From Promethearchaeota archaeon (GTDB taxonomy: Archaea > Asgardarchaeota > Lokiarchaeia > Sigyniarchaeales > SOKP01), in contig JALGVJ010000028.1 of the NCBI GenBank assembly GCA_029838195.1, positions 1 through 49,631 of the forward strand: DNA of 49,631 bases, read 5' to 3'. The translations under genes and the position numbers were made by a program. Positions 9,115 through 39,494 of this stretch are shown in pieces. Positions within the stretch are counted from its first letter, which is position 1. Every line of letters begins with the position of its first letter. The notes under the pieces are model-generated. The model saw nothing but the letters and a program-made list of their open reading frames with translations. It was not told the origin of the DNA and did not search any database.

Positions 9115-10965
9115 ATGAAATTAAAAGGTTTTATAGGAAATCTCCTAAATATCGATTTGAGTAATAATAAAATTACTCAAGAACCGTTAAATTATGATAT
9201 AGCAGGTAAATTCCTAGGTGCTGCTGGATATTGCGTGCGTTATTTGTATGATCACCTCGATAAAGATACAGATCCTTTGTCTCCCCAAAATATTTTAATG
9301 TTCATGACTGGACCTCTCTGCGGATCAAATGCTCCTACTAGCGGAAGATTTAACATCTGCGCTAAGAGTCCCTACACAGGATTGTGGGGAGAATCCAGCT
9401 GCGGAGGGTTTTTCGGCCCAGAATTAAAAAAAGCTGGATTTGATGGGATTATCATTAGAGGAAAGTCAAAATCTCCCGTTTTTCTTGAAATTACGGACGA
9501 AGGAACTGAAATCAAAGATGCTGCGCATTTATGGGGAAAAGGTATTTTTGAAACTTCTAGAATATTAAAAAATCAATACGGCCCGGAGCTCGTAAGAGTT
9601 GCTTGTATCGGACAAGCGGGAGAAAATTTAATAAAATTTGCAACCATAGCTTCTGAAGAAAAAGCTGCCGGTCGCACCGGAATGGGGGCTGTAATGGGCT
9701 CAAAAAATCTAAAGGCTGTTGTGGTAAAAGGTAAAAAAAAATCCTATGAAACAGCCGATCCTAATGGATTTAAAGATGCCGTGAAGGCTGCTATAGAAAA
9801 CGTGCAGGCGTCATTTGCTACTCAAATGTTTGGATTACTAGGTACTGCGGGCGGTGTTGATAAATTCAATTTAGAAGGAGAATTGCCGATTAAATACTGG
9901 ACCTTAGGCACGTGGGAGGGTGCTTATCATATTTCAGGAGCTACTGCTTCCGAGAAAATTTTTACAAGAAATTATCCTTGTTTTTCTTGTCCTATCGGAT
10001 GTGCCAAGAAAGCGCGGGTAAAAGAAGGAAAATATAAAACAGATGGAGAGGTAGAAGCTCCTGAATATGAGACAATTGCCGGTTTTGGTTCTTTGATTTT
10101 AAATGATAATCTAGAATCTATTGTAATTGCCAATGAGACTTGTAATGATTTTGGAATTGATACGATTAGTTGTAGTAGTACTATTGCTTTAATCTATTAT
10201 CTATTTAATGAAAATAAAATTACTTCTGAACAAATTGATGGATTAAATCCTAAATGGGGGGATATCGAACCGGCATTAGAAATGATAAGAAAAATTGCGT
10301 TTAGAGAAGGTATTGGAAATATTCTTGCCGACGGTTCTAATAATGTGGGAAAGCAATTTAACATTCCCTCGGATCAAATAGCGACTACTTTGGGAATGGA
10401 AATTCCCTATCATGATTTGAGACAAACCTATGGAATGGCTATTGCTTATTCTGTTGGAGCGCCGAGAGGTCCGTGTCATACTGCATGTGACATGTATATG
10501 GTTTTATTGGGATTACCTTTTGAAGAACTAGGGATAAAAATGATAGATCGTTATGATGATGGGGAAGACATGGCACGCAATTGTGCTCTTACTTATGATT
10601 ATCGTGCTCTTTATAATGCATTGACAATGTGCATTTTTTGTAATCCTCTTCCTTCCATGGTTCTCAACATGCTTAATGCGGCTACAGGTTTAAATCTTGA
10701 TTTAAATGAGCTGAAAATTATGGCAGAGCGAATATACATGATGAAAAGGTTATTCAATCTCAAGATGGGACTTACTCCTAAAATGGAAACCTTGCCAAAA
10801 ATAGTTCTTCAACCAGTCAAGGAAGGGGGGTCTGCTGGTAGAACACCGAATTTTGAGCAATTAAAAAGGAAATATTATGAGATTCGGACATTTGATCCAG
10901 AAACGGGATATCCCAGTCAAGAAAAATTAAGAAGTTTAGGGTTAGAAGATCTCGTAAAATTCTGA
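9115..10965 (+). CDS. aor: Tungsten-containing aldehyde:ferredoxin oxidoreductase family protein
   Basis: AKSPYTG, GRTGMGAVMGSKNLKA, CFSCPIGC, PEYET, GIDTIS, MCIF. Confidence 0.92.
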   Translation: MKLKGFIGNLLNIDLSNNKITQEPLNYDIAGKFLGAAGYCVRYLYDHLDKDTDPLSPQNILMFMTGPLCGSNAPTSGRFNICAKSPYTGLWGESSCGGFFGPELKKAGFDGIIIRGKSKSPVFLEITDEGTEIKDAAHLWGKGIFETSRILKNQYGPELVRVACIGQAGENLIKFATIASEEKAAGRTGMGAVMGSKNLKAVVVKGKKKSYETADPNGFKDAVKAAIENVQASFATQMFGLLGTAGGVDKFNLEGELPIKYWTLGTWEGAYHISGATASEKIFTRNYPCFSCPIGCAKKARVKEGKYKTDGEVEAPEYETIAGFGSLILNDNLESIVIANETCNDFGIDTISCSSTIALIYYLFNENKITSEQIDGLNPKWGDIEPALEMIRKIAFREGIGNILADGSNNVGKQFNIPSDQIATTLGMEIPYHDLRQTYGMAIAYSVGAPRGPCHTACDMYMVLLGLPFEELGIKMIDRYDDGEDMARNCALTYDYRALYNALTMCIFCNPLPSMVLNMLNAATGLNLDLNELKIMAERIYMMKRLFNLKMGLTPKMETLPKIVLQPVKEGGSAGRTPNFEQLKRKYYEIRTFDPETGYPSQEKLRSLGLEDLVKF

Positions 10966-11200: not shown

Positions 11201-12472
11201 TTATAGGTTATATGATTTTTTCTTATAAGTTCGATCAGTAAATATATAGATTTTATCTTTCTCGACTTCCACGGGATAAACATTTATACTTTTTATTTCC
11301 AATTCTATAATTAATTCTTTATTTTTATTCCCTTTAGGTGTTGTATTTACTAATTTATCTCGATATTTAATATTGTCAGCTTTAAAATGCAAGTATGTGT
11401 CTGTTTCATTGCCCATGATTATTACATCATCGCCTTTTTTTAATGAACCGTTATTTAAAGAAATCTGAGCGAAACGAGTTTTAGGATTAAAATTCACTAT
11501 TGTTCCTATTTTAATATATCTATAATGAGATAAATTAGCGGGGAAATTATGCTGTTGATCTTCTTCCGTGCATCTTTTAAAATAGAATCCCGTCGTGAAC
11601 CCCCTATTATATACTTTTTTTAATTCTGTAATCCATTTTTTAACTTTTTTCTTAGAAAACTCATTAGAATAATAAGAATCTATCGCTTCTCGATAAACTT
11701 TCGATACAATTTCAACATAATGGGGGTGCTTCATCCTTCCTTCAATTTTGAACGCATCTAGCTTAGCTTCTATTAATTCGGGAATATAACGAATCATGCA
11801 TAAATCTCGTGAATTGAGAAATCGAACGCCATCATAAATATATTCTTTCCCAGACTCTTCTTTCAACCACCATCTTCTTCTACAAGGTTGTATACAATTT
11901 CCTCTATTTGCTGATTTTTCTTCAGATCCACAGATATCTTGAGAGAAATAACATCTTCCACTGACAGATGTGCACATGGCGCCATGAACAAACACTTCCA
12001 CCTCTGATTTGGTTAAATTTCTCTTGATTTCCTTGATTTTCTCTAAAGAAAGCTCCCTTGCCAATATTATTCTTTTAGCTCCAAGATCCTCATAAAATTT
12101 GGCAGATAAAGAATTGGATACATTACATTGAGTAGATATATGAAACGGCAGATCCATGGATCTTGCTATTTCTAAAACGGCAATATCATGAACGATCACG
12201 GCATCAATTCCAGCATTTTTAGCCTCTTGCAAAACACGCCTTATTTCTGGTAGCTCATTATCATAAATCAAAATATTAGTAGTCAAATAACATTTCAAAT
12301 CATTAGAATGACAAAAATGAACTACATTCGGTAATTCTTTCAAATCAATATTTTCGGCTTTCATTCTCATGTTATATTTTTTGACTCCAAAATAAACAGA
12401 GTCCGCATGAGGAATAGCGGCCTTAATCGCTTTTAAATTCCTAGCAGGGGCCATTAATTCGACTCTTTTCAT
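11201..12472 (-). CDS. Peptidase U32 family Fe-S protein (TrhP-like hydroxylase)
   Basis: ELMAPA, HISTQ, RIILARELS, EVFVHGAMCTSVSGRC..NRGNCIQPCR, FKIEGR. Confidence 0.9.
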   Translation of the reverse strand: MKRVELMAPARNLKAIKAAIPHADSVYFGVKKYNMRMKAENIDLKELPNVVHFCHSNDLKCYLTTNILIYDNELPEIRRVLQEAKNAGIDAVIVHDIAVLEIARSMDLPFHISTQCNVSNSLSAKFYEDLGAKRIILARELSLEKIKEIKRNLTKSEVEVFVHGAMCTSVSGRCYFSQDICGSEEKSANRGNCIQPCRRRWWLKEESGKEYIYDGVRFLNSRDLCMIRYIPELIEAKLDAFKIEGRMKHPHYVEIVSKVYREAIDSYYSNEFSKKKVKKWITELKKVYNRGFTTGFYFKRCTEEDQQHNFPANLSHYRYIKIGTIVNFNPKTRFAQISLNNGSLKKGDDVIIMGNETDTYLHFKADNIKYRDKLVNTTPKGNKNKELIIELEIKSINVYPVEVEKDKIYIFTDRTYKKKSYNL

Positions 12473-12593
12473 GGATTGATTTTCTTTTTTAAATATAATT
12501 TAAACCTATATTTAAAAGAAGGGCATTACTCATATAAAAAAACAAATAATATTATAATTTACTACGTTCCTCTAAATCAAATGAAATAAAAAT

Positions 12594-13616
12594 TTAATAT
12601 ATAAAAATAATCATTAAAAACGATAAAAGTACGCCGAAAAATGAAAGCAAAAAAGTAAATACATGGTTATCAATAGTGATTCTTTGAAAATCAGTGCCAA
12701 TTTTAATTTTTAAACTGAAGAATTGTTTTGGTTTCAACATGCCATAAAAAAGAACACCTTGAAACCATCTCAAGTAAGGATAACTAAAAAACATGAATGA
12801 GCCCATCATCATGATGGAAAACATGAGGATTTCTAAAAAATTAATTTTATCATTTTTTATTGATAGAAAAATTATAAAAAATATCAAGGAGGGGATTATT
12901 CTCAGGTAAAAGGGAAAAGCAGCACCGATTTTATACCACTGAATTAATTCTTCCCTATATTTTGAAATATAGAAAAAGGGAATCACCATTAAAATTAAAA
13001 TTATGGGCGGAATTGTAATAAGAAATCGTTTTAAATCATTCCATTTTTTTTTCCGAATTAAATCAAGAAAAATTAATCCCAAGCCAGGTAAAGTATAATA
13101 TTTTGTAACCATCGATAATCCCAGAAATAAATAAAAGAGATATTGTTCATGATGATTGGCCTCTTCTCCGGGATAATAAATTAATGCTAAAAAGAAAAAT
13201 AAAAAGAAAAACGAATCAGTTACATGATAACCGCAGTTGATTGGACTGAAAATATTGTTTACAAAGAGAAATGGATTCAGAAGATACAAGCCGTAGGCAA
13301 CTTTAATATTCATGATTTTAAACCGCTTAAGCACAAAATAAAACAAAATACTCGTAAAAACCTCCCAAAAGAAAGCCCAAAATGCAAATATCTCAATGGA
13401 GCCAAAAGATAAAAACACGAATATTTCTAATAAAAATGATGTTAGAGGAGGATAATAAATAATATGTCGAAAATTTAATCCAACATCACCCCAAGATCTA
13501 TTTATATCAATAGCGTGAATGTAATAATAATAAAGGAGCATGAAAATTCTCATGCTTACCCCTAAAAATATTAAAATAAAACCAAGATTTTTCTTTAAAA
13601 CACTGAATAATTTCAT
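12594..13616 (-). CDS. Multi-pass membrane protein, GT-C (GT87/PIG-M-like) glycosyltransferase-like
   Basis: WGD...YYPPL luminal loop, LLNP, TDS, TKYY in a multi-TM context. Confidence 0.5.
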   Translation of the reverse strand: MKLFSVLKKNLGFILIFLGVSMRIFMLLYYYYIHAIDINRSWGDVGLNFRHIIYYPPLTSFLLEIFVFLSFGSIEIFAFWAFFWEVFTSILFYFVLKRFKIMNIKVAYGLYLLNPFLFVNNIFSPINCGYHVTDSFFFLFFFLALIYYPGEEANHHEQYLFYLFLGLSMVTKYYTLPGLGLIFLDLIRKKKWNDLKRFLITIPPIILILMVIPFFYISKYREELIQWYKIGAAFPFYLRIIPSLIFFIIFLSIKNDKINFLEILMFSIMMMGSFMFFSYPYLRWFQGVLFYGMLKPKQFFSLKIKIGTDFQRITIDNHVFTFLLSFFGVLLSFLMIIFIY

Positions 13617-28802: not shown

Positions 28803-31637
28803 CTAAATATTTTTTTTTTCACGTTTACGACGAATAATGAACTTTCTTAGCTCATCACCAGGTATAATCCAAATTGAACCAAGGAATATTGCCAACCAGT
28901 GAAATCCCCGATCCATAGGAACCGCATGAAATGCATATCCAAGAGGGGTAAATAGAATTATTATGTGAATCGAAAAAGATAAAGCTACAGCCCAAATTAA
29001 ATGCTTATTCGGAAATAGCCACATGGGTTTATTTTCAGAGGTGCATGAGAATACAAAGAATAGTTCGAAAAACACCACGTTGGTAAAAATAATTGTCTGC
29101 ACGACTGCTTTTTGATATTCCTCTGCTGTATAAAAAATACCAAATATTTCGGTTCCCTGTAGTAATCTGGAATCTATCGTGCTCCAGGCAGGAATCAAAT
29201 ATCTCCAACAAATCACGTACAGTGCCACGTCCGTTATTGCAGCAAACACGGCAGCAAAAATAATTGCATTTTTAATATCAGATATCATGTTAAACCCTTT
29301 ACGAGGCTTGAGTTTCATTACATCCGGATCTGTTGGAGTTAAACCGAGGACCATTGCGGGAATGCCATCCGTGGCGATATTAAGCCAAAGGATTTGAATA
29401 GGTTCTAAAGGTTGGGCAAGATATACGTTAGAAAAAATTTTCATCAAAATCCAAGCCGAAAGAATCAAGATAATTTCGTCAAAATTGGCACTCAACATGT
29501 AGCGGAAGAAATTCTTGGTCGTTTCAAAGATTCCTCTCCCTTCTTCAATAGCATTCACGATGGTCGCATAATTATCGTCAAGTAGGATCATGTCCGCGGC
29601 TTCTTGGGTAACCTCCGTCCCTTTTTGCCCCATGGCGACACCCACATTGGCAGCCTTCACGGCAGGTGCGTCATTGACTCCATCCCCCGTCATGCTAACG
29701 ATATTTCCATTCGTTTTCAATATTTTAAGAATCCTAAATTTATGATCGGACGTAACGCGAGCAAAAACATCCACGTGTTCAATCTCATTCGCTAATTCTT
29801 CATCAGACATGTTCTCTAATTCTGAACCCGTAAGTGCACTATCATTTTGCGTTAACCCTATTTGTTTAGCAATTGCCAATGCTGTAATCTTATGATCTCC
29901 TGTTATCATAATCGTTCTAATTCCCGCATTTCTAGCTTCTTCAATAGATTTTATTACTTCATTCCTGGGTGGATCAATGATTCCAACCAATCCAAGAAAA
30001 ACAAAGTCTTTTTCCATATCATCTTTAGTGAAATTCTCGTTAAGAGGTTTATAAGCTAAACCAAGTACTCGTAGAGCTTGATGAGCAAATTCTTCATTCT
30101 TTTTTAAAATTTTTTCTTTTACCTCGTGAATGGGTTTTTCTTCTCCATTCCAGAGGCCCTTGGCAGTATAGTTCATCAATATATCGGGAGCTCCTTTAAT
30201 AAACGAATAAAGTTCCCCATCGACACGGACTGCCACGGACATTCTTTTTCTATCCGAATTAAACGGAATCTCATCCAATTTTTCCACCTGCGAATTAATA
30301 TTCATTTTCATCGCAAGGATTTTCAAACAAATTTCCGTTGGGTCTCCTATTACATCCGTATTTTTTCCATCTTCTTTTACGTTTATACTAGCATTATTAC
30401 AATACTTAGCTACTTGTAGGAATTTTTTCAAATAAGGGGTCATTTCAACCGGTTTCCCCGTTGCATTCACAATTTTGCCTTCAATGTTATATCCTACTCC
30501 TTCTACATCATATTCTTTCCCATCAATATATATTTTTACCACGGTCATTTCGTTTCGAGTTAAGGTTCCTGTTTTATCCGAACAAATGATGTTTATCCTT
30601 CCTAATGTCTCTACTGCGGTGAGTGTTTTCACTAAAGCATTCCTTTCGGCCATTTTCCGCATCCCAAGGCTCATTACAACCGTTATAACAACGACTAAGC
30701 CTTCGGGCACTGCTGAAACGGCCAGACTTATAGAAATCGTAAGCGCATTTATTATTTCCTCTATTTCTTCATTGCTAAATGCCAGTCCTTCAGTAGCAAT
30801 GATAATCAAAAATTCTATTATAAAAATGGCAAAACAAATAATAATGATGATTTTTCCCAAGAGTTTTCCAAATCGTTCAATTTCTATTTGAAATGGACTT
30901 GGTTCCGGCTCTACTTCTTGAATTTTTTCTGCTATCTTACCTATTTCCGTATTCATGCCTGTCTGAACAACCACGGCACTACCATTACCTCTGGTAATAA
31001 TAGTATTACTATACACCATGTTTTTTCTATCTGCTAAAAGAGTTTTTTCTTTCAATTCAGCTGGTTTTTTCAGAACGGGCTCGGATTCTCCGGTGAGAAT
31101 TGCTTCATCTACATATAGAGAGTATGAATTTATAAGTCGGGCATCGGCCGGAATTTTGTCTCCTTCTTCTAGAATGAGAATATCTCCCGGAACCACATGT
31201 TTTACCTCGATTTCTTTGATTTTTTCATCTCGTTTTACTTTAGCATTGCGAGGTGCCATTTTTTTTAAGCTTTCTAGAGATTTTTCCGCTTTGTATTCTT
31301 GATAAAATCCCAGAATTGCGTTAATTAATAAAATTATGAAAATTACTAGGGCATCCAAGAATTCTGAAGCCGGGTTTCCTAAAGAGAGTTCATAGATTCC
31401 CACAATGATTGAAATTACTATAGCGAAGAGCAATAAATAGACTAAGAAATCCTTAAATTGATTAATAAATATTTGCCATGCCGTAATTCTCTTTCTTTGT
31501 ACTAACTCATTCAATCCATATTGTTCCAATCGCTTGCGAGCTTCTTCTTCAGTTAATCCTTGTTCAATGGAAGTGTTCAATCGCTTTTCAATGTCCTCAA
31601 TTTTTAAAGCATGAGCATTTACTAAATCGTCTTTCAT
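28803..31637 (-). CDS. P-type IIA (Ca2+-type) cation-transporting ATPase, copy B
   Basis: Same motif set as copy A; tandem paralogue. Confidence 0.93.
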   Translation of the reverse strand: MKDDLVNAHALKIEDIEKRLNTSIEQGLTEEEARKRLEQYGLNELVQRKRITAWQIFINQFKDFLVYLLLFAIVISIIVGIYELSLGNPASEFLDALVIFIILLINAILGFYQEYKAEKSLESLKKMAPRNAKVKRDEKIKEIEVKHVVPGDILILEEGDKIPADARLINSYSLYVDEAILTGESEPVLKKPAELKEKTLLADRKNMVYSNTIITRGNGSAVVVQTGMNTEIGKIAEKIQEVEPEPSPFQIEIERFGKLLGKIIIIICFAIFIIEFLIIIATEGLAFSNEEIEEIINALTISISLAVSAVPEGLVVVITVVMSLGMRKMAERNALVKTLTAVETLGRINIICSDKTGTLTRNEMTVVKIYIDGKEYDVEGVGYNIEGKIVNATGKPVEMTPYLKKFLQVAKYCNNASINVKEDGKNTDVIGDPTEICLKILAMKMNINSQVEKLDEIPFNSDRKRMSVAVRVDGELYSFIKGAPDILMNYTAKGLWNGEEKPIHEVKEKILKKNEEFAHQALRVLGLAYKPLNENFTKDDMEKDFVFLGLVGIIDPPRNEVIKSIEEARNAGIRTIMITGDHKITALAIAKQIGLTQNDSALTGSELENMSDEELANEIEHVDVFARVTSDHKFRILKILKTNGNIVSMTGDGVNDAPAVKAANVGVAMGQKGTEVTQEAADMILLDDNYATIVNAIEEGRGIFETTKNFFRYMLSANFDEIILILSAWILMKIFSNVYLAQPLEPIQILWLNIATDGIPAMVLGLTPTDPDVMKLKPRKGFNMISDIKNAIIFAAVFAAITDVALYVICWRYLIPAWSTIDSRLLQGTEIFGIFYTAEEYQKAVVQTIIFTNVVFFELFFVFSCTSENKPMWLFPNKHLIWAVALSFSIHIIILFTPLGYAFHAVPMDRGFHWLAIFLGSIWIIPGDELRKFIIRRKREKKNI

Positions 31638-31753
31638 GGTTTTTTATTAGGTTCATTTAGTTTATAATAATATATTAATTATTTTAATTAATAATGAGTA
31701 TTATAGTTTATATATCTGAATCCCTTCCTTTAAAGGATTTTTAGGTGAATCTC

Positions 31754-32146
31754 TTGTTTAAATTAATTTTTTCACAAAAAGCTTTAGAATACATCAAGCA
31801 GTATAAAAATAAAGAAGAGCGTTCTGGAGAATTAAATAAATTTGTCGTGGTATTATTTTTTCATTCAACTAGTATGTGAACCATGACGTTCTGTGGAAAT
31901 ATAGTTGAATTGATTGAGAAAAAGAAAGTATATCGGGATAGCGATTTTGTATTATGGGAAAATACAAATATAAATGAAAACTTCGATAACGCACGTGGTA
32001 TTGAAGTATATATAGAAAAAAATTTGGTGAAGGAATTGATGAATCAAAAGCCCATAATTATCATTGATGCTGCTATAGGAAAAACGAAACAAGGAGATCA
32101 AATTGGAATGCTCTTTATAAAGAAAAATAAAAACGTGTATGGTTAA
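31754..32146 (+). CDS. Putative selenoprotein, HesB/IscA-like fold, 130 aa, Sec42 encoded by TGA 31877-31879
   Basis: SD AGGTGA 31743-31748, TTG 31754, 41 sense codons, TGA, then in frame into the 87-aa ORF: MFKLIFSQKALEYIKQYKNKEERSGELNKFVVVLFFHSTSM-U-TMTFCGN...GIEVYIEKNL...IIID. SECIS directly downstream. Confidence 0.78.
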
Positions 32147-32149
32147 AAA

Positions 32150-32185
32150 ATGACCTAATCTTATAAATTTTAGAAGATTAGTGAT
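32150..32185 (+). promoter_or_regulatory. Eukaryote-type (Lokiarchaeal) SECIS element in the 3' UTR
   Basis: A-TGAC / CTAATCTT (32155-62) / ATAAATTTTAG / AAGATTAG (32174-81) / TGAT: tandem G.A core, 8-bp perfect helix II, AAA 11 nt after ATGA. Confidence 0.8.
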
Positions 32186-32266
32186 TCGCTCGCGCGAGTG
32201 TTTAAGATGAAATGTTCCATAAAATGAAAAAGTAATTGAATAATCAATAAAAAATAAATAAAAGAT

Positions 32267-32890
32267 TTATTTTTTGAATTTTAAAAGAAGTTCAGCTACT
32301 CTTTTTCCAAGATCCTTGGCGATTAACCCCCCTAACTCATCTTTTTCTTCCTTTCCTAAAAATTCCTTTAAACCATGCTTTTGTAAACTCGTAATTGGGA
32401 TATTTCCTTCTAATACGGGATTTCCTTCCGTATTGCCAACAATAATCATTCCTTGGATCAGAGCAAAATTAATTAAATCGGAAATGACCCCTTCTCCTCC
32501 GTTTCTTAGGCCTGTAGCCGCCATCGGGGCAAAAATTACATCTTTTAATAAATAATTTTTCATTTTCCACGGACGCGAGCGATCAATCAACAGTTTCAAT
32601 TGCGAACTTAGGGAACCAAAATAATTTGGCGCAGCAATAATTAATGCATCAGATCCTAAAATTAAATCCTCTAATTTTTTTGTATCATCTTGTTCTGCTA
32701 AGGGACAATCGTGAGGAGGTCTCAAGCATATATCGCATCCATTACATGGAATAATATTAAAATCAGAAATCTGAATTTTATTAATAGCGAAATCTGCTGA
32801 AACGGATTGTATTCCTTCTATAGCATTATCTATTAAAAAATTACAACTTCTATTTTTCCGAGGTGAACCAACAATTAATGTAATTTTCAT
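32267..32890 (-). CDS. Iron-sulfur flavoprotein / multimeric flavodoxin family
   Basis: GSPRK, CNGCDICx6C cysteine motif, APNYFGS, IDR, RNGG. Confidence 0.88.
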   Translation of the reverse strand: MKITLIVGSPRKNRSCNFLIDNAIEGIQSVSADFAINKIQISDFNIIPCNGCDICLRPPHDCPLAEQDDTKKLEDLILGSDALIIAAPNYFGSLSSQLKLLIDRSRPWKMKNYLLKDVIFAPMAATGLRNGGEGVISDLINFALIQGMIIVGNTEGNPVLEGNIPITSLQKHGLKEFLGKEEKDELGGLIAKDLGKRVAELLLKFKK

Positions 32891-33023
32891 GGTACATGAT
32901 AATTTTTTATTATTTTTTATATTTTTTCCAAAATCTTCAATTCGTTATATTTGACTTTAAATTTAAAATATTTTTGGAAAATTGTTCAATAAACATGATT
33001 CTTATTTAATTAGGCAAGCTGAC

Positions 33024-33950
33024 TTATAAAGCTCGGAAAAACTCAGGTTTTAATATTTCCGAATGAGTTAACCCATAATTTATGACGGATAAAATTTGAT
33101 GTTTTTCCCTATCAAGAACTCCTTTTAAAGGGAGATAATTACTGGCGTGATTAGCTCGAAAAATACAATTAGCATTAGGATTATTTTTAAAATTCACGTG
33201 CGTTATAAATGTTTTTAATTCCTTTAAAATTTCTACAGATGTCATTTCTTTAAATTCACCCCGCATTTTTTTCTCGTAAAGAACTGTTCCTGGCGGGACT
33301 ATTAAGGTTAAAAATGCAATGTACCACGTTCTATCATTATTGGGACAAATTTTATTCACGAGATCTGCTGATTCAACAGCATGATGGTAAGAAAGTTCGG
33401 GATTATCAGCTCCGCCCAATCCATTGATTAAAGTAGCAGATAAAGTTATGTTTGCTTTCATCAGTTTTCTTGAAGCTTTAATATAATCCTCTTTAGTTGC
33501 GTGTTTATTTACCGCTTTAAGTAATGCATCATATCCGGATTCAAATCCCACGTATGCTATCTTTAAACCTGCCTCTTGTAAGGCTTTTAATTGAAGGTCT
33601 GATTTTTTTAGAATGTCTTTAGCGTGAGCATATACTCCAACTCGCTCAAGATAAGGAAAATTTTGATTTGAATGCTGTAAAATATCAAGTAGTACATCTG
33701 TAGGTGTTACCATGGCATTTCCATCAAGAAAAAATATTCTTTTTACGCCCTTTCCATAAATTTTCCTTGCAATATCAAGATCTCTTTTTATATCCGCAAC
33801 TCCTCTTATTAAAAATGGTTTTCTTAAATTAGACATGCAAAAATCGCATTTGAAAGTACATCCTTCTGTGAGTTGAATCAAAAGAGAATTAGCTTCGCTG
33901 GGAGGTCTAAATACAGGCTCCTTATAATATATTCGTTCATGGACTGCCAT
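33024..33950 (-). CDS. Radical SAM protein
   Basis: FRPPSEA, CTFKCDFC, YVGFESG, NHASNY. Confidence 0.92.
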   Translation of the reverse strand: MAVHERIYYKEPVFRPPSEANSLLIQLTEGCTFKCDFCMSNLRKPFLIRGVADIKRDLDIARKIYGKGVKRIFFLDGNAMVTPTDVLLDILQHSNQNFPYLERVGVYAHAKDILKKSDLQLKALQEAGLKIAYVGFESGYDALLKAVNKHATKEDYIKASRKLMKANITLSATLINGLGGADNPELSYHHAVESADLVNKICPNNDRTWYIAFLTLIVPPGTVLYEKKMRGEFKEMTSVEILKELKTFITHVNFKNNPNANCIFRANHASNYLPLKGVLDREKHQILSVINYGLTHSEILKPEFFRAL

Positions 33951-34004
33951 GGTTCTTGTATCACATGAATTAAGAAATAATATTCAATAATGCGGGAATA
34001 AAAA

Positions 34005-34718
34005 TTAATCCTTTTCAAATTCTTCCAATGAAAGTTCTCCTTCAATGTATAGCTTCTCTTTCTTCTTGTCCGCATCTTCCGGACGTTTAGAACATGAGGA
34101 AAGATGTCGAGCTAAGCGGGCATACATTTTCCCACAATATGGGCATTCTAATTTTTCTTGTTGTTGCTTTTTCGTGGAGGTTTTTTTCTTTTTTCTTCTT
34201 GTTCCTTTTTTTTTCTTTTTCTTAGCTCTTGATGGCAACACGTCATCAATTGTTGCATCTTCAGGGGCTAATTCACAGATCTCGAGATGGCCTTCAATAT
34301 CATCCGTGATTTCTCCACAGTAAGGACATTCTAAAGTTCCAATATCTTCTGCTTCTATGTCTTCTTTACTAGTTTTCCTCTTTTCATATTTTAATTCAAT
34401 TTCTTCCTCTTCCTCGAATTCGTCAACGGATAAATCAATTTCTTCTTCAACCAACTCGAAATCTTTTAGTTCTAATTCCTTTTCTTTGATTTTTTTCTCC
34501 GCTAGTCGTTTACTTTCTTCATATACTTCGGTGATCCTGCGGTCTGTTTGTGAATATAGTGAACACACTTGACAAACGTAAGCATGGGTGCCTAATACCA
34601 GATCTCTTGCGTCGCAATAACATAACGGTTGTAAACTATTACTATAATCTCCTTTGGGATGAAGGTGCTTGCAAGCGTTTTTTCTTGAAAATTTTAATTT
34701 TTGCTTTCTTCTAGGAAT
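34005..34718 (-). CDS. Multi-zinc-finger protein (N-terminal Cys/His cluster, two C2HC fingers, acidic and basic tracts)
   Basis: Frame open 50 codons upstream of GTG 34568 to ATT 34718 (MPRRKQKLKFSRKNACKHLH...CYC...CQVC), preceded by GGTGA SD. Fingers CPYC-x9-HLEIC and CPYC-x9-HLSSC. Confidence 0.7.
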   Translation of the reverse strand: MPRRKQKLKFSRKNACKHLHPKGDYSNSLQPLCYCDARDLVLGTHAYVCQVCSLYSQTDRRITEVYEESKRLAEKKIKEKELELKDFELVEEEIDLSVDEFEEEEEIELKYEKRKTSKEDIEAEDIGTLECPYCGEITDDIEGHLEICELAPEDATIDDVLPSRAKKKKKKGTRRKKKKTSTKKQQQEKLECPYCGKMYARLARHLSSCSKRPEDADKKKEKLYIEGELSLEEFEKD

Positions 34719-34835
34719 TGTTTACTCACCAAAAAAAATGGCAATTACTGAGATATAGAATGATTTATAAAATAAGTTTATTATGGTTTAAAGAATTAAA
34801 CCTTCAAATTATCATTTTTAGCACCTAATTTTTAA

Positions 34836-36413
34836 CTAAAAGTTAAAATGGATGGATTGAAGATCGGTAATGATCTTATTTTTAATAGTGAAATTCTGGA
34901 TGTTGGGAAGTAAATCTTCAATTAGATCCTTTAGGGCTTTGATTTTTTGAATGAGCATTTCGGGTTTATAAAGGGGAGATGACCTCAAAGGGTGCCCTCT
35001 CATGATTCCCTTGTTGTAATTTTCAATAGCTTCGCGGAGAAATAAACCTGCCCTGTCAGGTTCATTTAATCTAGCTTGATATGTCAATCCTATTCGTTCA
35101 AAAGATAACCCCGCCCCGACATAGTCTCTTGCTGCTATAAAATGTTTTGCGGCTTCTTGGAGTTCTTGTAAAGCACGTTCTATCTGGTCTATTTCGTTTT
35201 CTTGTATTGTTTTTAGTAATATATACCCCTTTAAATAATGACCTTCCCCAACATGGAATAAATTTTCGTGTTGGTTTGCAAAATCCATAAACTTTTCAGT
35301 GAATTCTTCGGCTAAAGTGAAATGTTCATTATTAATGCATTCAATTATGAGTTCACGGTATATTTCTAATACACGCGTGATCCGTTGTAATTTTTCATGA
35401 ATATTAATTGCTTTAGTGAATAATTCCACGCCGGAAACGGCATCTTTATTTTTAAACGCAATTTTTCCCTCATGAAAATATTTTTCCGCTTGTTCTAGTT
35501 CAATCTCGTCATCTAATTGCTTTAAATGGTGTTCAAGAGATTGTTTTACGGCCGAGTCATTAAAAATAATTTGCTCATCAAGGGATAATTCTTCAAACAA
35601 TTCTGGCTCTAAAGGATTTTCCTTTACTCGTGCTTTATTAGCTGTGGGGTCTATATACTCTTGACTCCAGTATTCTCCATAAGCTGATTGAAGTGGTTTG
35701 CCTTCTTGAACTCGCTCTGACAATTCTCTCATGAGACTGGCGAAAAAATATTTATTTAAACCATCGATAACATAATCCACGGCATGGTAATTATTTTCAA
35801 AATTAGGATCATTAAAATCTAAATTAATATTTGTAATCCGATAAATCTCAAAACCGGTATCATATTTTGTAATTTCATGGGCTTGCCCATTCTCGTCATA
35901 GATTTTTTCTTTTTTCTTTTTACCCAAAAGCGTATGGTCGTAGACCAGTCCAATGGCATCGTCATTTACTCCCTGAAAATATAGCTGATTAATTAGATCA
36001 TCTATCGAAAAGAATGGGTTAAATCCGGGGTGAGAATGAAACCATCCAATTATATAATTTTTTTCTCCTTTTTGAACGCATTCCTCTTGAATGTTGCTAA
36101 TAAAAACATAATGTTTTTCCTCCAATTGGACATCCGTGGAATGTCCGAACGTAAGAGCCTCAGCTCTGACGACATGAACAAAGTCTTCATCTGAATATCC
36201 AATTAACACACCATATACTTCTTTCCAATCATTTTGAGGCATTGAATTATTTGCAAATCTATTTGCATATAAAATTATGGTTTTATATGCTTCTGCTGAA
36301 ATTATTACGGGTTTTTCATTTTTAGTTGTTTCTTGATGAGATTCTATTTGGGATCCGTCTTTCTCCTTTTTACTATTAAAATCGTGGCGTGAATCTTTAA
36401 AATTTTCTGACAT
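34836..36413 (-). CDS. JAB/MPN+ (JAMM) metalloprotease domain fused to TPR-like helical repeats
   Basis: KEVYGVLIG, GWFHSHPGFNPFFSIDD = intact E..HSH-x7-S-x2-D motif; C-terminal half has helical repeats. Confidence 0.85.
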   Translation of the reverse strand: MSENFKDSRHDFNSKKEKDGSQIESHQETTKNEKPVIISAEAYKTIILYANRFANNSMPQNDWKEVYGVLIGYSDEDFVHVVRAEALTFGHSTDVQLEEKHYVFISNIQEECVQKGEKNYIIGWFHSHPGFNPFFSIDDLINQLYFQGVNDDAIGLVYDHTLLGKKKKEKIYDENGQAHEITKYDTGFEIYRITNINLDFNDPNFENNYHAVDYVIDGLNKYFFASLMRELSERVQEGKPLQSAYGEYWSQEYIDPTANKARVKENPLEPELFEELSLDEQIIFNDSAVKQSLEHHLKQLDDEIELEQAEKYFHEGKIAFKNKDAVSGVELFTKAINIHEKLQRITRVLEIYRELIIECINNEHFTLAEEFTEKFMDFANQHENLFHVGEGHYLKGYILLKTIQENEIDQIERALQELQEAAKHFIAARDYVGAGLSFERIGLTYQARLNEPDRAGLFLREAIENYNKGIMRGHPLRSSPLYKPEMLIQKIKALKDLIEDLLPNIQNFTIKNKIITDLQSIHFNF

Positions 36414-36499
36414 GAATTTAAAAAAAATCTGAAAACATTATTTTTTTCTTCTAAAAAATAATAAAAATAGTAATATAAAATTTTATCTTTCCTTGGAAG

Positions 36500-37714
36500 T
36501 TAAATCACGCTATTTCTCTTCAATTCTCGTATTTCCTCTTCCGAGTAGTTTAGAGACCTTAATATTTCTTTTGTATGCTGTCCAACTTTAGGAGCTATTG
36601 ATCTTATCGTTAATGGGGTTCTTGACATTTTGATGGGTGAGGCAATATTTTTTAATTTCCCTAATTTTGGATGAGTCGTATTAACAATCATATTTCGTGC
36701 TTTGATCTGAGGATCTACACATGCTTCCGCAAAAGTTTTAACTGGCATCACGCAAGCATCTAAGTTTTTAAAAACTTCGAACCATTCATCTCTTGTCTTT
36801 TTTTTAAATTCTTTTTCTAATTCTTTAAATACTTTTTCCTTTTCTTCTCCTTGTACGGTCTGTTTTAACATGAGATCCTCACGACCTAATCCTTTGCAAA
36901 GAGCATGCCAAAATTTCATTTCAATTGCTCCTACCGTAATATATTTGTCATCTTTCGTCTTATAGATGGAATAAAATGGAAAATCTCCATGAAGTGGGTT
37001 TTTGGTATCAATTTTTTGATTATATGACTCTGAAAAATGATGAGCAGCAGTCATGGGGATGAATGAGAATACGGTATCCGTCATAGAAATGTCTAAATAT
37101 TGGCCAATCCTCCCTTCATTACGTTCTCTTTCGATTAAGGCGGCCAATATTCCTATGGTTGAGATCAACCCACCTCCAATATCTGCAGATTGCATGCAAG
37201 GAACAATAGGTGGCTGCTCTTTATCAACTTCATTAAAAACACGTCTCGGTCGATTTTGATCTAACATTCCGCATATTCCAACATAATTTAAATCGTGTCC
37301 GGCGTTTTTCTCATAAGGCCCATCCTGACCATAGCCCGTTAAAGAGCAATAGATTATGGACTTGTTAAATTTAGAAACTGTTTGATAGTCTACTTCTAAT
37401 TTTTCCGTAACTCGAGGTCGAAAGGACTCTACAATGACATCTGACTTTTCAACTAATTTGTAAAATATTTCCTTGGCTTTTGATTTTTTAAGATTTAATG
37501 TCATGGATTTTTTATTTCTCATGATGATATGATTAAAGGCGCTAACCCGCGTGTGGTCTTTTTGAAAAAAAGGGGGAGGATTAGCATAAGGAAAGTTTGG
37601 ATCCTCTACTCGAATGACATTAGCACCTAAGTCTGCTAAGATCATCGTGCAATATGGACCAGGCAACATTCTCGTGAGGTCTATAACCGTGATATTATCT
37701 AAAGGTAAAGGCAT
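36500..37714 (-). CDS. CaiB/BaiF family III CoA-transferase
   Basis: LPGPYC..LADLGA, RNKKS, GYGQDGPY, GHDLNY, DIGGG, GQHT. Confidence 0.93.
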   Translation of the reverse strand: MPLPLDNITVIDLTRMLPGPYCTMILADLGANVIRVEDPNFPYANPPPFFQKDHTRVSAFNHIIMRNKKSMTLNLKKSKAKEIFYKLVEKSDVIVESFRPRVTEKLEVDYQTVSKFNKSIIYCSLTGYGQDGPYEKNAGHDLNYVGICGMLDQNRPRRVFNEVDKEQPPIVPCMQSADIGGGLISTIGILAALIERERNEGRIGQYLDISMTDTVFSFIPMTAAHHFSESYNQKIDTKNPLHGDFPFYSIYKTKDDKYITVGAIEMKFWHALCKGLGREDLMLKQTVQGEEKEKVFKELEKEFKKKTRDEWFEVFKNLDACVMPVKTFAEACVDPQIKARNMIVNTTHPKLGKLKNIASPIKMSRTPLTIRSIAPKVGQHTKEILRSLNYSEEEIRELKRNSVI

Positions 37715-37763
37715 GATAATTAATGAGATTGTTCATGAAAATTAAATTTAATGTAAAAAAAAA

Positions 37764-38270
37764 TCATAATTCTATGATTTCTGCTTCCATTTTCTCCGTA
37801 TCGATAATTGCAAACGTTCCTTTCCCAGTTAAATACCCACATGCTTCGCCGGGATTTACAACTAACACGCCATTCCCCAATTTTTTACTCATCACGGAGT
37901 GCGTGTGTCCAAAAAGCACAATATCAAATTTTCCTGAACTTGCAATGGCATCCACCGTTTCTTCATTAGGCATGTGAGAGGCAAAAACTCGTCTCTTATC
38001 AAGAGTTGCGATCAACTCATTTCCTACTAGATTGCAAATCTGACCTAAATTTTCTTTCAAAAAAACTCTGTCGCCATCGTTATTTCCAAATACTCCGGAA
38101 AAATTATGTTTAATTTTTTCATTTAAAGAATCAAACCATCGAACGACAAAAGCAGAATTGTAATCTCCACAATGGATGAGGGCATCCACGTCTCGTTCGT
38201 TCATAATTGAAACTGCTTTTAAAATATTATCCCGATTATCATGGGTATCGGATATTACAGCTAATTTCAT
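37764..38270 (-). CDS. Metallophosphoesterase (YfcE/MJ0936 family)
   Basis: SDTH, HCGD, GNND, GHTH, NPG; likely ATG start at 38270. Confidence 0.92.
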   Translation of the reverse strand: MKLAVISDTHDNRDNILKAVSIMNERDVDALIHCGDYNSAFVVRWFDSLNEKIKHNFSGVFGNNDGDRVFLKENLGQICNLVGNELIATLDKRRVFASHMPNEETVDAIASSGKFDIVLFGHTHSVMSKKLGNGVLVVNPGEACGYLTGKGTFAIIDTEKMEAEIIEL

Positions 38271-38417
38271 GTTCAGCCACAATGATTTCTTAATTGATTG
38301 AGGATTTAAATTAAGATATTATTATTATGAATATAAATTATAATAGATAAATTATTAGTTTTGTATGTTAAGTGTAATTTTATTAATCCATTATGGAAAA
38401 AATCAAGGGTAAAAAAA

Positions 38418-39494
38418 ATGGTTAAAGAATTTTTTAAAAATGAAAAAATGGCAATTGAGCAAAAAGTGAATGAATATTTCGAATCTCTACTTAGTTCCCA
38501 AAAAGATCCTCTTTTTTATGATTTTTTAACTCAATTAAAAGAATTCATCCTAAATCTTGAAGCTAAAAGAATTCACCCCGTCCTCCTCATTGCCGCTTTC
38601 ATGGGCATCGTCAATCCTTTATACGTACAAGATCAAATTGATGAAATTAGAAAAGTAGCAATCTCCGTGGAACTTCTTCATAATGCTCATTTAATTCATG
38701 ATGATTTAATTGATGAAGATATATTGCGAAGAAATAAACCAACTTTTCACGTGCAATTGAAGGAAGAACTAAAAAAGATAATTGACGCTAAGCAAATTTC
38801 AAAAAATAATGAAATTTTAGCTATTTCTTATGGGGAAAAAATGAGCGTCTTAGGTGGCTCCTTTGCTTATCTCCTCGGTCTGGACATCATTAAAGCTTCA
38901 AAATTCTCGGAAAAACTAAAATTAATGGCAATTAAGGAATATTCCGAAGCTATGGATTATATTATAAAAGGACAAATCATAGAAGAATACATGTATTACC
39001 ATGACATAACGATGTCTCTTGAACAGTATCTAAGTATAGCAGAATTACTCAGAGCCCGCTTATTCGAAAAATCTTCTAAAATTGGTGCCATCTTAGCAAA
39101 AGGAAACTTGCATTATCAAATAAAACCACTTTCAAATGCCATGCTAAAAATTGGACAAGCTCATGCGATCATCGATGATATTTTAGACCTTCATGAGGAT
39201 ATTCAAAATAAGAAAAAAAAAGTCATCTATATCCTGGCATTACAAAATACAAATGAGGAAGAATCTCGAATCCTTAAAGAAATTTATAATAAAGAAAGAG
39301 TTTCGCAAAATGATATCAAGCGAGTAGAAAAAATTTTTGCCTCCACGAACGCGCCCGTCATTGCCGAACATCTTGCAAAAAATCTCATTGAACAAGCAAA
39401 ACAAGATTTAAAAGATATCTATCCGGATCTTAATAAAAAGCAGAAGATTTTCTTTAATGAATTCAGTGATTTTCTTTTCCTTCGCAAGATTTAA
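38418..39494 (+). CDS. Polyprenyl synthetase family protein (divergent)
   Basis: KRIHP, HDDLID..RR FARM, DDILD SARM; likely ATG 38418. Confidence 0.8.
   Translation: MVKEFFKNEKMAIEQKVNEYFESLLSSQKDPLFYDFLTQLKEFILNLEAKRIHPVLLIAAFMGIVNPLYVQDQIDEIRKVAISVELLHNAHLIHDDLIDEDILRRNKPTFHVQLKEELKKIIDAKQISKNNEILAISYGEKMSVLGGSFAYLLGLDIIKASKFSEKLKLMAIKEYSEAMDYIIKGQIIEEYMYYHDITMSLEQYLSIAELLRARLFEKSSKIGAILAKGNLHYQIKPLSNAMLKIGQAHAIIDDILDLHEDIQNKKKKVIYILALQNTNEEESRILKEIYNKERVSQNDIKRVEKIFASTNAPVIAEHLAKNLIEQAKQDLKDIYPDLNKKQKIFFNEFSDFLFLRKI

Follow-up and report, generated by a model that had tools for sequence, protein, structure and literature searches.

A probable Lokiarchaeia-type SECIS element within a three-way junction behind a putative IscA/HesB-fold selenoprotein gene

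The stretch of DNA analysed here (the window, 49,631 nt) comes from a Promethearchaeota archaeon and carries a gene of 130 codons with an in-frame TGA and a SECIS-like element behind its end (Table 1). The TAA stop codon of the ORF 31754-32146 is located at 32144-46 and the element begins 3 nt downstream, with no T-run ahead of it. Translation may start at GTG 31745 or, more likely, at TTG 31754 behind GGTGA. Two convergent neighbours follow, an FMN reductase-like flavoprotein gene (PF03358) at 32267-32890 (-) and a radical SAM protein gene (PF04055) at 33024-33950 (-). The 120-nt gap between the putative selenoprotein gene and the flavoprotein gene is almost wholly occupied by the SECIS junction described below.

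Table 1. Positions in the window of the putative selenoprotein gene and of the parts of its 3' element. R1 is the covariance model described in the text.
Feature	Position	Strand	Basis or remark
TATA-like box TTTATATA, putative promoter	31707..31714	+	about 40 nt before the start codon; suggested by the sequence alone
Putative selenoprotein gene, 130 codons	31754..32146	+	TTG start 5 nt past GGTGA (31744-48), TAA stop
In-frame UGA, probably read as selenocysteine, SM-U-TMTFCGN	31877..31879	+	same alignment position in 31 of the 31 homologues listed; protein conserved on both sides
Probable helix I, 5' strand, UAUGG (last Tyr-Gly codons)	32138..32142	+	MFE fold and R1 alignment pair it with 32217-21
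Putative SECIS core, 5' side, AUGA + N (C)	32150..32154	+	sequence; AT invariant, G in at least 90% of 29 family elements
Helix II, 5' strand, CUAAUCUU	32155..32162	+	sequence; 96.6% of cells paired, four pairs with compensatory changes
Apical loop, 11 nt, AUAAAUUUUAG	32163..32173	+	A-rich start, AG end; final G invariant in 29 of 29; in line with the lokiSECIS loop rules
Helix II, 3' strand, AAGAUUAG	32174..32181	+	sequence and pairing alignment
Putative SECIS core, 3' side, N (U), GA, U	32182..32185	+	GAT invariant in 29 of 29 elements
Hairpin III, CGCUC-GCGC-GAGUG	32187..32200	+	folds; on the 3' (non-bulged) strand, between core and helix I
Probable helix I, 3' strand, CCAUA	32217..32221	+	MFE fold and R1 alignment; least certain part

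A hairpin at 32150-32185, 3 nt past the stop codon, had been proposed in the original prediction, and the exact string is present: ATGA (32150-53), C (32154), CTAATCTT (32155-62), the loop ATAAATTTTAG (32163-73), AAGATTAG (32174-81) as the perfect reverse complement of the 5' arm, T (32182), GA (32183-84) and T (32185). The arms of helix II, which had been called a perfect 8-bp helix, are fully complementary (32155-62 versus 32174-81). An AAA run in the apical loop begins 11 nt past AUGA as had been noted, and the in-frame TGA (31877-79), estimated to lie about 270 nt before the element, was found 273 nt upstream of it. A UGAN/NGAN quartet had also been read into the core. The basal C.U fits the N.N pair of such a quartet, and because 18 of 30 elements behind VhuD genes likewise lack a Watson-Crick pair there, C.U behaves here as this N.N pair.

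The SECIS elements described from Lokiarchaeota (lokiSECIS; Mariotti et al. 2016, PMC4989117) are found a very short distance from the end of the coding sequence; AUGA precedes their 9-bp stem and GA follows it immediately. Their loop has 11 nt and is A-rich over the first five, and its last nucleotide is an ultraconserved G, mostly with an A in front of it. The candidate agrees with the sequence criteria of lokiSECIS type I in AUGA, stem, loop, GA and stop-proximal position, and it stems from a Lokiarchaeia-type (Promethearchaeota) genome. Four of the first five nucleotides of its loop AUAAAUUUUAG are A and the loop ends in AG. The sole departure concerns the nine positions of the stem, which are filled by eight Watson-Crick pairs and the basal C.U. 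With a GA_GA core, 8-9 bp and an 11-nt loop the candidate also fits the type I eSECIS-like model for Asgard archaea, i.e. a GA_[G/A]A core, an upper stem of 7-15 bp with at most two mismatches and a loop of 8-20 nt (Huang, Xiao & Zhang 2024, PMC11227280).

The genome (4.5 Mb, 33% G+C), of which the window is contig 7, has a tRNA-Sec gene (53.9 bits, above the Rfam cut-off), SepSecS at a distance of about 800 bp from it, EFSec on the same contig (above the NCBIfam cut-off), a SelD gene with an in-frame TGA of its own and a PSTK-like gene. Because the archaeal/eukaryotic Sec pathway is present, Sec decoding is expected in this organism. The Sec cluster on contig 3 extends from 31433 to 38989 and comprises EFSec at 31433-32305 (-), tRNA-Sec at 36949-37035 (+) and SepSecS at 37832-38989 (+). 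The candidate element is found in the context expected for Sec insertion, 3 nt past a stop codon, with a UGA 273 nt upstream and with the Sec machinery encoded in the genome.

Within the order, 54 of 154 genomes had a match to the read-through protein, and almost every match contained one TGA and no more. When 400 Asgard genomes were searched with a family profile, the protein was recovered from 52 of the 134 genomes of a single Lokiarchaeia family and from practically none outside it. Two positions of the protein are invariant, C42, which corresponds to U, and C47, giving the motif U-x4-C-G-N. Searches of Pfam and NCBIfam with the candidate protein yielded no match, and a profile search against the PDB sequences found nothing for the protein family. 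TIGR01911 (HesB-like selenoprotein) matched 2 of 24 relatives weakly with a best E of 0.0012. In an AlphaFold2 model with a pLDDT of 79, IscA, SufA and related proteins of Fe-S biosynthesis made up eight of the nine best PDB matches; the best fold match had an E of 2.7e-3, a probability of 1.0 and TM values of 0.47/0.58, the link to IscA/SufA being drawn by fold comparison only. The gene product is thus predicted by the model to have an IscA/HesB-like fold.

The nearest named relative of the protein is the euryarchaeal HesB-like family of TIGR01911, which differs in its Sec motif, UxGP as compared to U-T-M-x-F-C-G-N in the candidate. The main text of the Asgard selenoprotein papers PMC4989117 and PMC11227280 does not mention HesB. 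A review of 2026 (PMC13188914) has HesB-like in its table of known selenoprotein families and names a Prx-like family, a homologue of the AhpF N-terminus and a DsbA-like family as exclusive to Asgard archaea. The family with an IscA/HesB fold and U-x4-C is absent from the seven Asgard families of PMC11227280 and from the Asgard families listed in PMC13188914.

For the analysis of conservation 29 elements were aligned, those of 27 orthologues, the candidate and a paralogue from the same genome. Sequence beyond the gene was available for 27 orthologues. Each of them keeps the TGA and has the element 0-10 nt past the stop codon; presence of the element in TGA-keeping orthologues is therefore complete (27 of 27). 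Across the 29 elements helix II was paired in 96.6% of cells, and the covariation sought among orthologues was found in four of its pairs, which changed on both sides, e.g. to CCGUUCUU/AAGAACGG in one orthologue (L039). In several clades the 3' arm of helix II contains one bulged nucleotide. Invariant in 29 of 29 are AT of AUGA, the last G of the loop and GAU. AUGA itself is found in 25 of 29 elements; three related genomes (L018, L019, L022) have AUGU and one (L033) has AUAA. The orthologues with AUGU or AUAA retain the in-frame TGA and the conserved protein. Either the core is less strict than modelled or these copies are impaired, and the variants are natural mutants by which the strictness of the kink-turn core may be gauged.

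The paralogue from the same genome (L010) is encoded on contig 38 at 68858-69259 (+). Its protein is about 25% identical to the candidate and has TGA at the same position (...YTRS-U-SRTSC...). The SECIS element starts 13 nt past the stop codon with a different loop and a stem, CCUAAUCUU/AAGAUUAGU, that is identical to that of the candidate. Thus the RNA stem is better conserved than the protein.

Other paralogues served as a natural control. Two genomes, G045 (L079) and G040 (L081), have a tandem array of three paralogues. The first and third of these have TGA and the element, the middle one is a Cys form (ISKQACAGSY) without TGA and without the element. In G046 (L080) one TGA paralogue with the element was recovered; the adjacent Cys paralogue is devoid of it. 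Because G045, G040 and G046 belong to one genus, the pattern is probably due to a single evolutionary event. TGA paralogues with the element as opposed to a Cys paralogue without it constitute a clean natural experiment. Across orthologues and paralogues the element co-occurs strictly with the in-frame UGA. The claim of the original prediction that the motif supports recoding of the UGA is itself supported by the conserved TGA, the element, the compensatory changes in the stem and the Cys paralogue that lacks the element.

Folds and alignment place the candidate element in a three-way junction that consists of helix I, the core with helix II, and the 3' hairpin III (32187-32200). For an alignment (A1) the regions 3' of VhuD genes of a single orthologue group were taken from 30 genomes, all belonging to the same family. 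It yielded a fold with the order helix I (AUGUGUU/AACACAU), AUGA-helix II-loop-GA, a 4-nt linker, hairpin III and the 3' strand of helix I. In A1 93% of cells were paired and 11 pairs had changes on both sides, values that were reached by 0 of 500 shuffles. Hairpin III of VhuD, AUGG-nnGCn-CCAU, is present in 30 of 30 elements with 99% pairing and an invariant GC in the loop.

The covariance model R1 was built from A1 and contains no sequence of the candidate's gene family. It was run without filters on the whole window and on 30 loci. Much as had been suggested beforehand, the candidate could in this way be scored with a model of selenoprotein 3' UTRs of the same lineage (VhuD, 30 genomes), and it ranked first: on both strands of the 49.6-kb window the top match was 32135-32230 with 21.2 bits and an E of 0.009. 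The second-best match in the window reached 18.1 bits and is devoid of helix II. The score of the candidate is modest (21 bits). In a search of 86 kb from the loci of orthologues and paralogues, R1 identified the site behind the homologous gene in 27 of 27 orthologue loci and in the paralogue of the same genome (L010) with 16-32 bits, while the off-target matches in the 86 kb numbered three only, all weaker. On the tandem loci L079 and L081 three of four elements behind TGA paralogues were recovered and none behind the Cys paralogue. When 150 of 5687 prefiltered candidates were scored genome-wide, R1 refound only its own VhuD source element. Because the other VhuD elements were missed, R1 is biased towards orthologues; together with the prefilter this makes the genome-wide run no fair test.

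In the candidate, MFE fold and R1 alignment choose UAUGG/CCAUA as helix I; an alternative in this copy is UUAAA (32143-47) with UUUAA (32201-05). About 16 nt are located between hairpin III and CCAUA, and in an orthologue of the same genus (L017) GCCAUAUA directly abuts hairpin III. In most orthologues helix I is formed by the last Tyr-Gly codons and the bases immediately past hairpin III. It covaries, with UAUAUGGC/GCCAUAUA versus UACGG/CCGUA, and at pair 11-87 of the alignment 13 sequences have UA while 11 have CG. Other clades have an A/U helix that flanks the core directly, AAAUAA/UUAUUU (L034) versus AAUAAA/UUUAUU (L042). The original prediction had called helix I weak. It is ambiguous in this copy, and it belongs to a three-way junction with an extra 3' hairpin that the earlier account did not contain.

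The stem of hairpin III differs completely between gene families while GC in the loop persists. The stems are AUGG/CCAU in VhuD, CGG/CCG in most orthologues of the candidate gene and CUC/GAG in this genome, L035 and L041; further elements of this genome have CCU/AGG, GGGAG/CUCC(U) and GUAGA/UCUAC. Neither hairpin III nor the junction is described in the main text of PMC4989117 or PMC11227280. Compared to lokiSECIS as presented in these main texts the candidate thus has two distinguishing marks, a gene family that is not listed there and a junction of helix I and hairpin III.

The value of hairpin III was seen in a scan of the 4.5-Mb genome. A bare descriptor (ATGA, N, an 8-bp helix with no more than one mismatch, a loop of 10-12 nt that is A-rich and ends with G, N, GA or AA) had 25 matches compared to 12-19 in five second-order Markov simulations. 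The full signature additionally contained hairpin III with at least 3 bp, at least two G-C pairs and a loop of 4-6 nt that includes GC. It had ten matches in the genome, the candidate included, compared to 0-2 in the simulations (mean 0.6). Hairpin III separates these ten real matches from about 15 chance ones. A loose descriptor (stems of 8-10 nt, two mismatches) gave 257 mostly meaningless matches. The ten full-signature matches belong to three VhuD and two VhuU genes, the candidate, the paralogue on contig 38, a beta-grasp gene and two small ORFs, and all of them stand behind ORFs that contain TGA. Thus comparable elements are uncommon behind ordinary genes, and the Cys paralogue, too, is without one.

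Could the hairpin be a chance inverted repeat, and the gene a pseudogene or two small ORFs divided by a true stop codon? The MFE stability was not significantly different from that of shuffled sequences (z of -1.3 and -1.2), the AU content of the genome is high, and chance accounts for about 15 matches of the bare descriptor per genome. Yet more than 50 genomes have TGA at one and the same position, flanked on either side by conserved protein sequence, and the element is conserved with covariation and is the top match of the independent model R1. We consider a chance origin extremely improbable.

The scan also touched other genes. In VhuD/VhuU genes at four places (contig 1 at 7652, contig 75 at 15189, contig 35 at 169227 and contig 34 at 92291) the stop codon is the UGA of the AUGA core, thus the coding sequence overlaps the element. 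The beta-grasp-like gene of 138 codons on contig 34 at 12232-12698 (-) (L014, L119) reads ...DPGC-TGA-TGA-, has 37 conserved codons after the double TGA and is followed 15 nt past its stop codon by a full lokiSECIS with hairpin III. It was matched in 53 of the 61 genomes of the family, nearly all with two TGA, some with three. On contig 19 (29920-29954, -; L011) a full-signature SECIS is located about 36 nt behind a small ORF with a single TM segment that ends with ...LTGSNS-U-PG-stop and possibly encodes a tiny membrane selenoprotein. Further SECIS elements on contig 39 at 9928-9962 (-) (L012) and on contig 34 at 75832-75866 (+) (L013) stand behind small putative zinc-ribbon ORFs, one of which reads CPSCG...SS-U-PLSFKCKNCGG and the other CTSCG...CPSCK...LPK-TGA followed by hard stops.

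A conserved structure of the 3' UTR may have a role other than Sec insertion, such as stabilisation of the 3' end, termination or regulation by an L7Ae-bound kink-turn, with the UGA being read through by other means. The location of the element at the very end of the gene, T-rich runs past hairpin III in some orthologues, the fact that AUGA/GA cores are generic kink-turn motifs and the persistence of the core variants AUGU and AUAA are in line with such a role. On the other hand, the established selenoprotein genes VhuD and VhuU are followed by the same architecture, and the element is absent behind the Cys paralogue of the same operon-like array. Furthermore, 10 of 10 full-signature matches in 4.5 Mb stand behind TGA ORFs, while a general terminator or stabiliser would be far commoner. 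A different role of the structure is therefore quite unlikely in our view.

Boxes C and D of C/D small RNAs have the sequences RUGAUGA and CUGA. The 5' AUGA and 3' UGAU of the element resemble parts of them, which raises the question whether a box C/D-like small RNA gene or another kink-turn RNA gene merely abuts the ORF. Yet the 5' motif is AAAAUGA and not RUGAUGA, a perfect helix with a conserved loop takes the place of guide sequences between the boxes, and Rfam showed no C/D-box match at the gathering threshold or at E <= 10. In addition, the position of the element is tied to the stop codon of the TGA gene in every genome. We give next to no credence to a separate RNA gene. The readings as terminator, stabiliser or small RNA fail because they leave the strict link with TGA unexplained. 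ARAGORN found no tRNA in the window.

Among the known SECIS types the eukaryotic one (SECIS_1, RF00031) shares with the candidate the location in the 3' UTR, the AUGA/GA quartet, unpaired A's 11 nt past AUGA and a distant UGA. Differences are the helix II of only 8-9 bp, the loop fixed at 11 nt and the extra hairpin on the 3' strand of the candidate. No Rfam family reached its gathering threshold anywhere in the window, and around the site (32100-32260) no SECIS family was matched even at E <= 10. Of the original label, a eukaryote-like SECIS, the resemblance remains, as a Lokiarchaeia type, but membership in the eukaryotic family does not.

The euryarchaeal GAA_A SECIS of Methanococcales/Methanopyrus is likewise a 3'-UTR element of archaea with a PSTK/SepSecS/EFSec pathway; in contrast to it the candidate has neither a GAA/A bulge nor a GC-rich two-stem structure. 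An element of this type was ruled out since the sequence and folds of 32147-32266 showed no such bulge in helix II or hairpin III, in line with the distinction from the methanogen GAA/A type made in the original prediction. A bacterial SECIS was ruled out as well. The region 31874-31945 after the UGA folded worse than its shuffles (z +1.36), and because there is no hairpin after the UGA, a bacterial-type signal is no alternative.

Taken together, the hairpin at 32150-32184 is very probably a type I lokiSECIS in the 3' UTR of the gene 31754-32146 that serves the in-frame UGA of this gene. The tandem G.A pairs would form a kink-turn-like core on the mRNA, and the folded element may recruit EFSec with GTP and Sec-tRNASec, either directly or via a further protein. 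The EFSec complex would then decode the UGA 273 nt upstream as selenocysteine in place of termination by the release factor. The expected product is a protein of 130 residues with an IscA/HesB fold and a Sec-x4-Cys site. As the start of the element is only 3 nt past the stop codon and the last codons are engaged in helix I, the structure would have to be melted by a ribosome that terminates. Its action would thus be confined to the time when the ribosome is still further upstream.

The junction is similar to the k-junction in secondary-structure topology only (Wang et al. 2014, PMC4005666; Li et al. 2023, PMC10573300). Its tandem G.A core has an extra helix on the strand without the bulge, as indicated by the covariation in A1 and in the orthologue alignment. 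The linker of the candidate comprises 2-5 nt, and the candidate is a putative recoding signal while the known k-junctions occur in riboswitches and DUF-3268 (PMC4005666, PMC10573300). L7Ae does not fold known k-junctions (PMC10573300). By analogy one may speculate, and we do so with considerable doubt, that hairpin III stacks on helix I, that the core folds with metal ions alone and without an L7Ae- or SBP2-type protein, that the GC loop of hairpin III docks EFSec or an adaptor, and that eukaryotic SECIS elements lost this arm when SBP2 took over. SBP2 was reported not to be found in Lokiarchaeota or other Asgard archaea (PMC4989117 among the reports), and a k-junction, if real, would explain its absence there.

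In this archaeon the element authenticates, as we read it, a selenoprotein gene that annotation splits in two. The gene represents the fourth gene family with evidence for the Lokiarchaeia SECIS being a three-way junction with a conserved side hairpin. The junction bears on the evolution of eukaryotic SECIS elements and SBP2 and on the question how archaeal SECIS elements in the 3' UTR are recognised.
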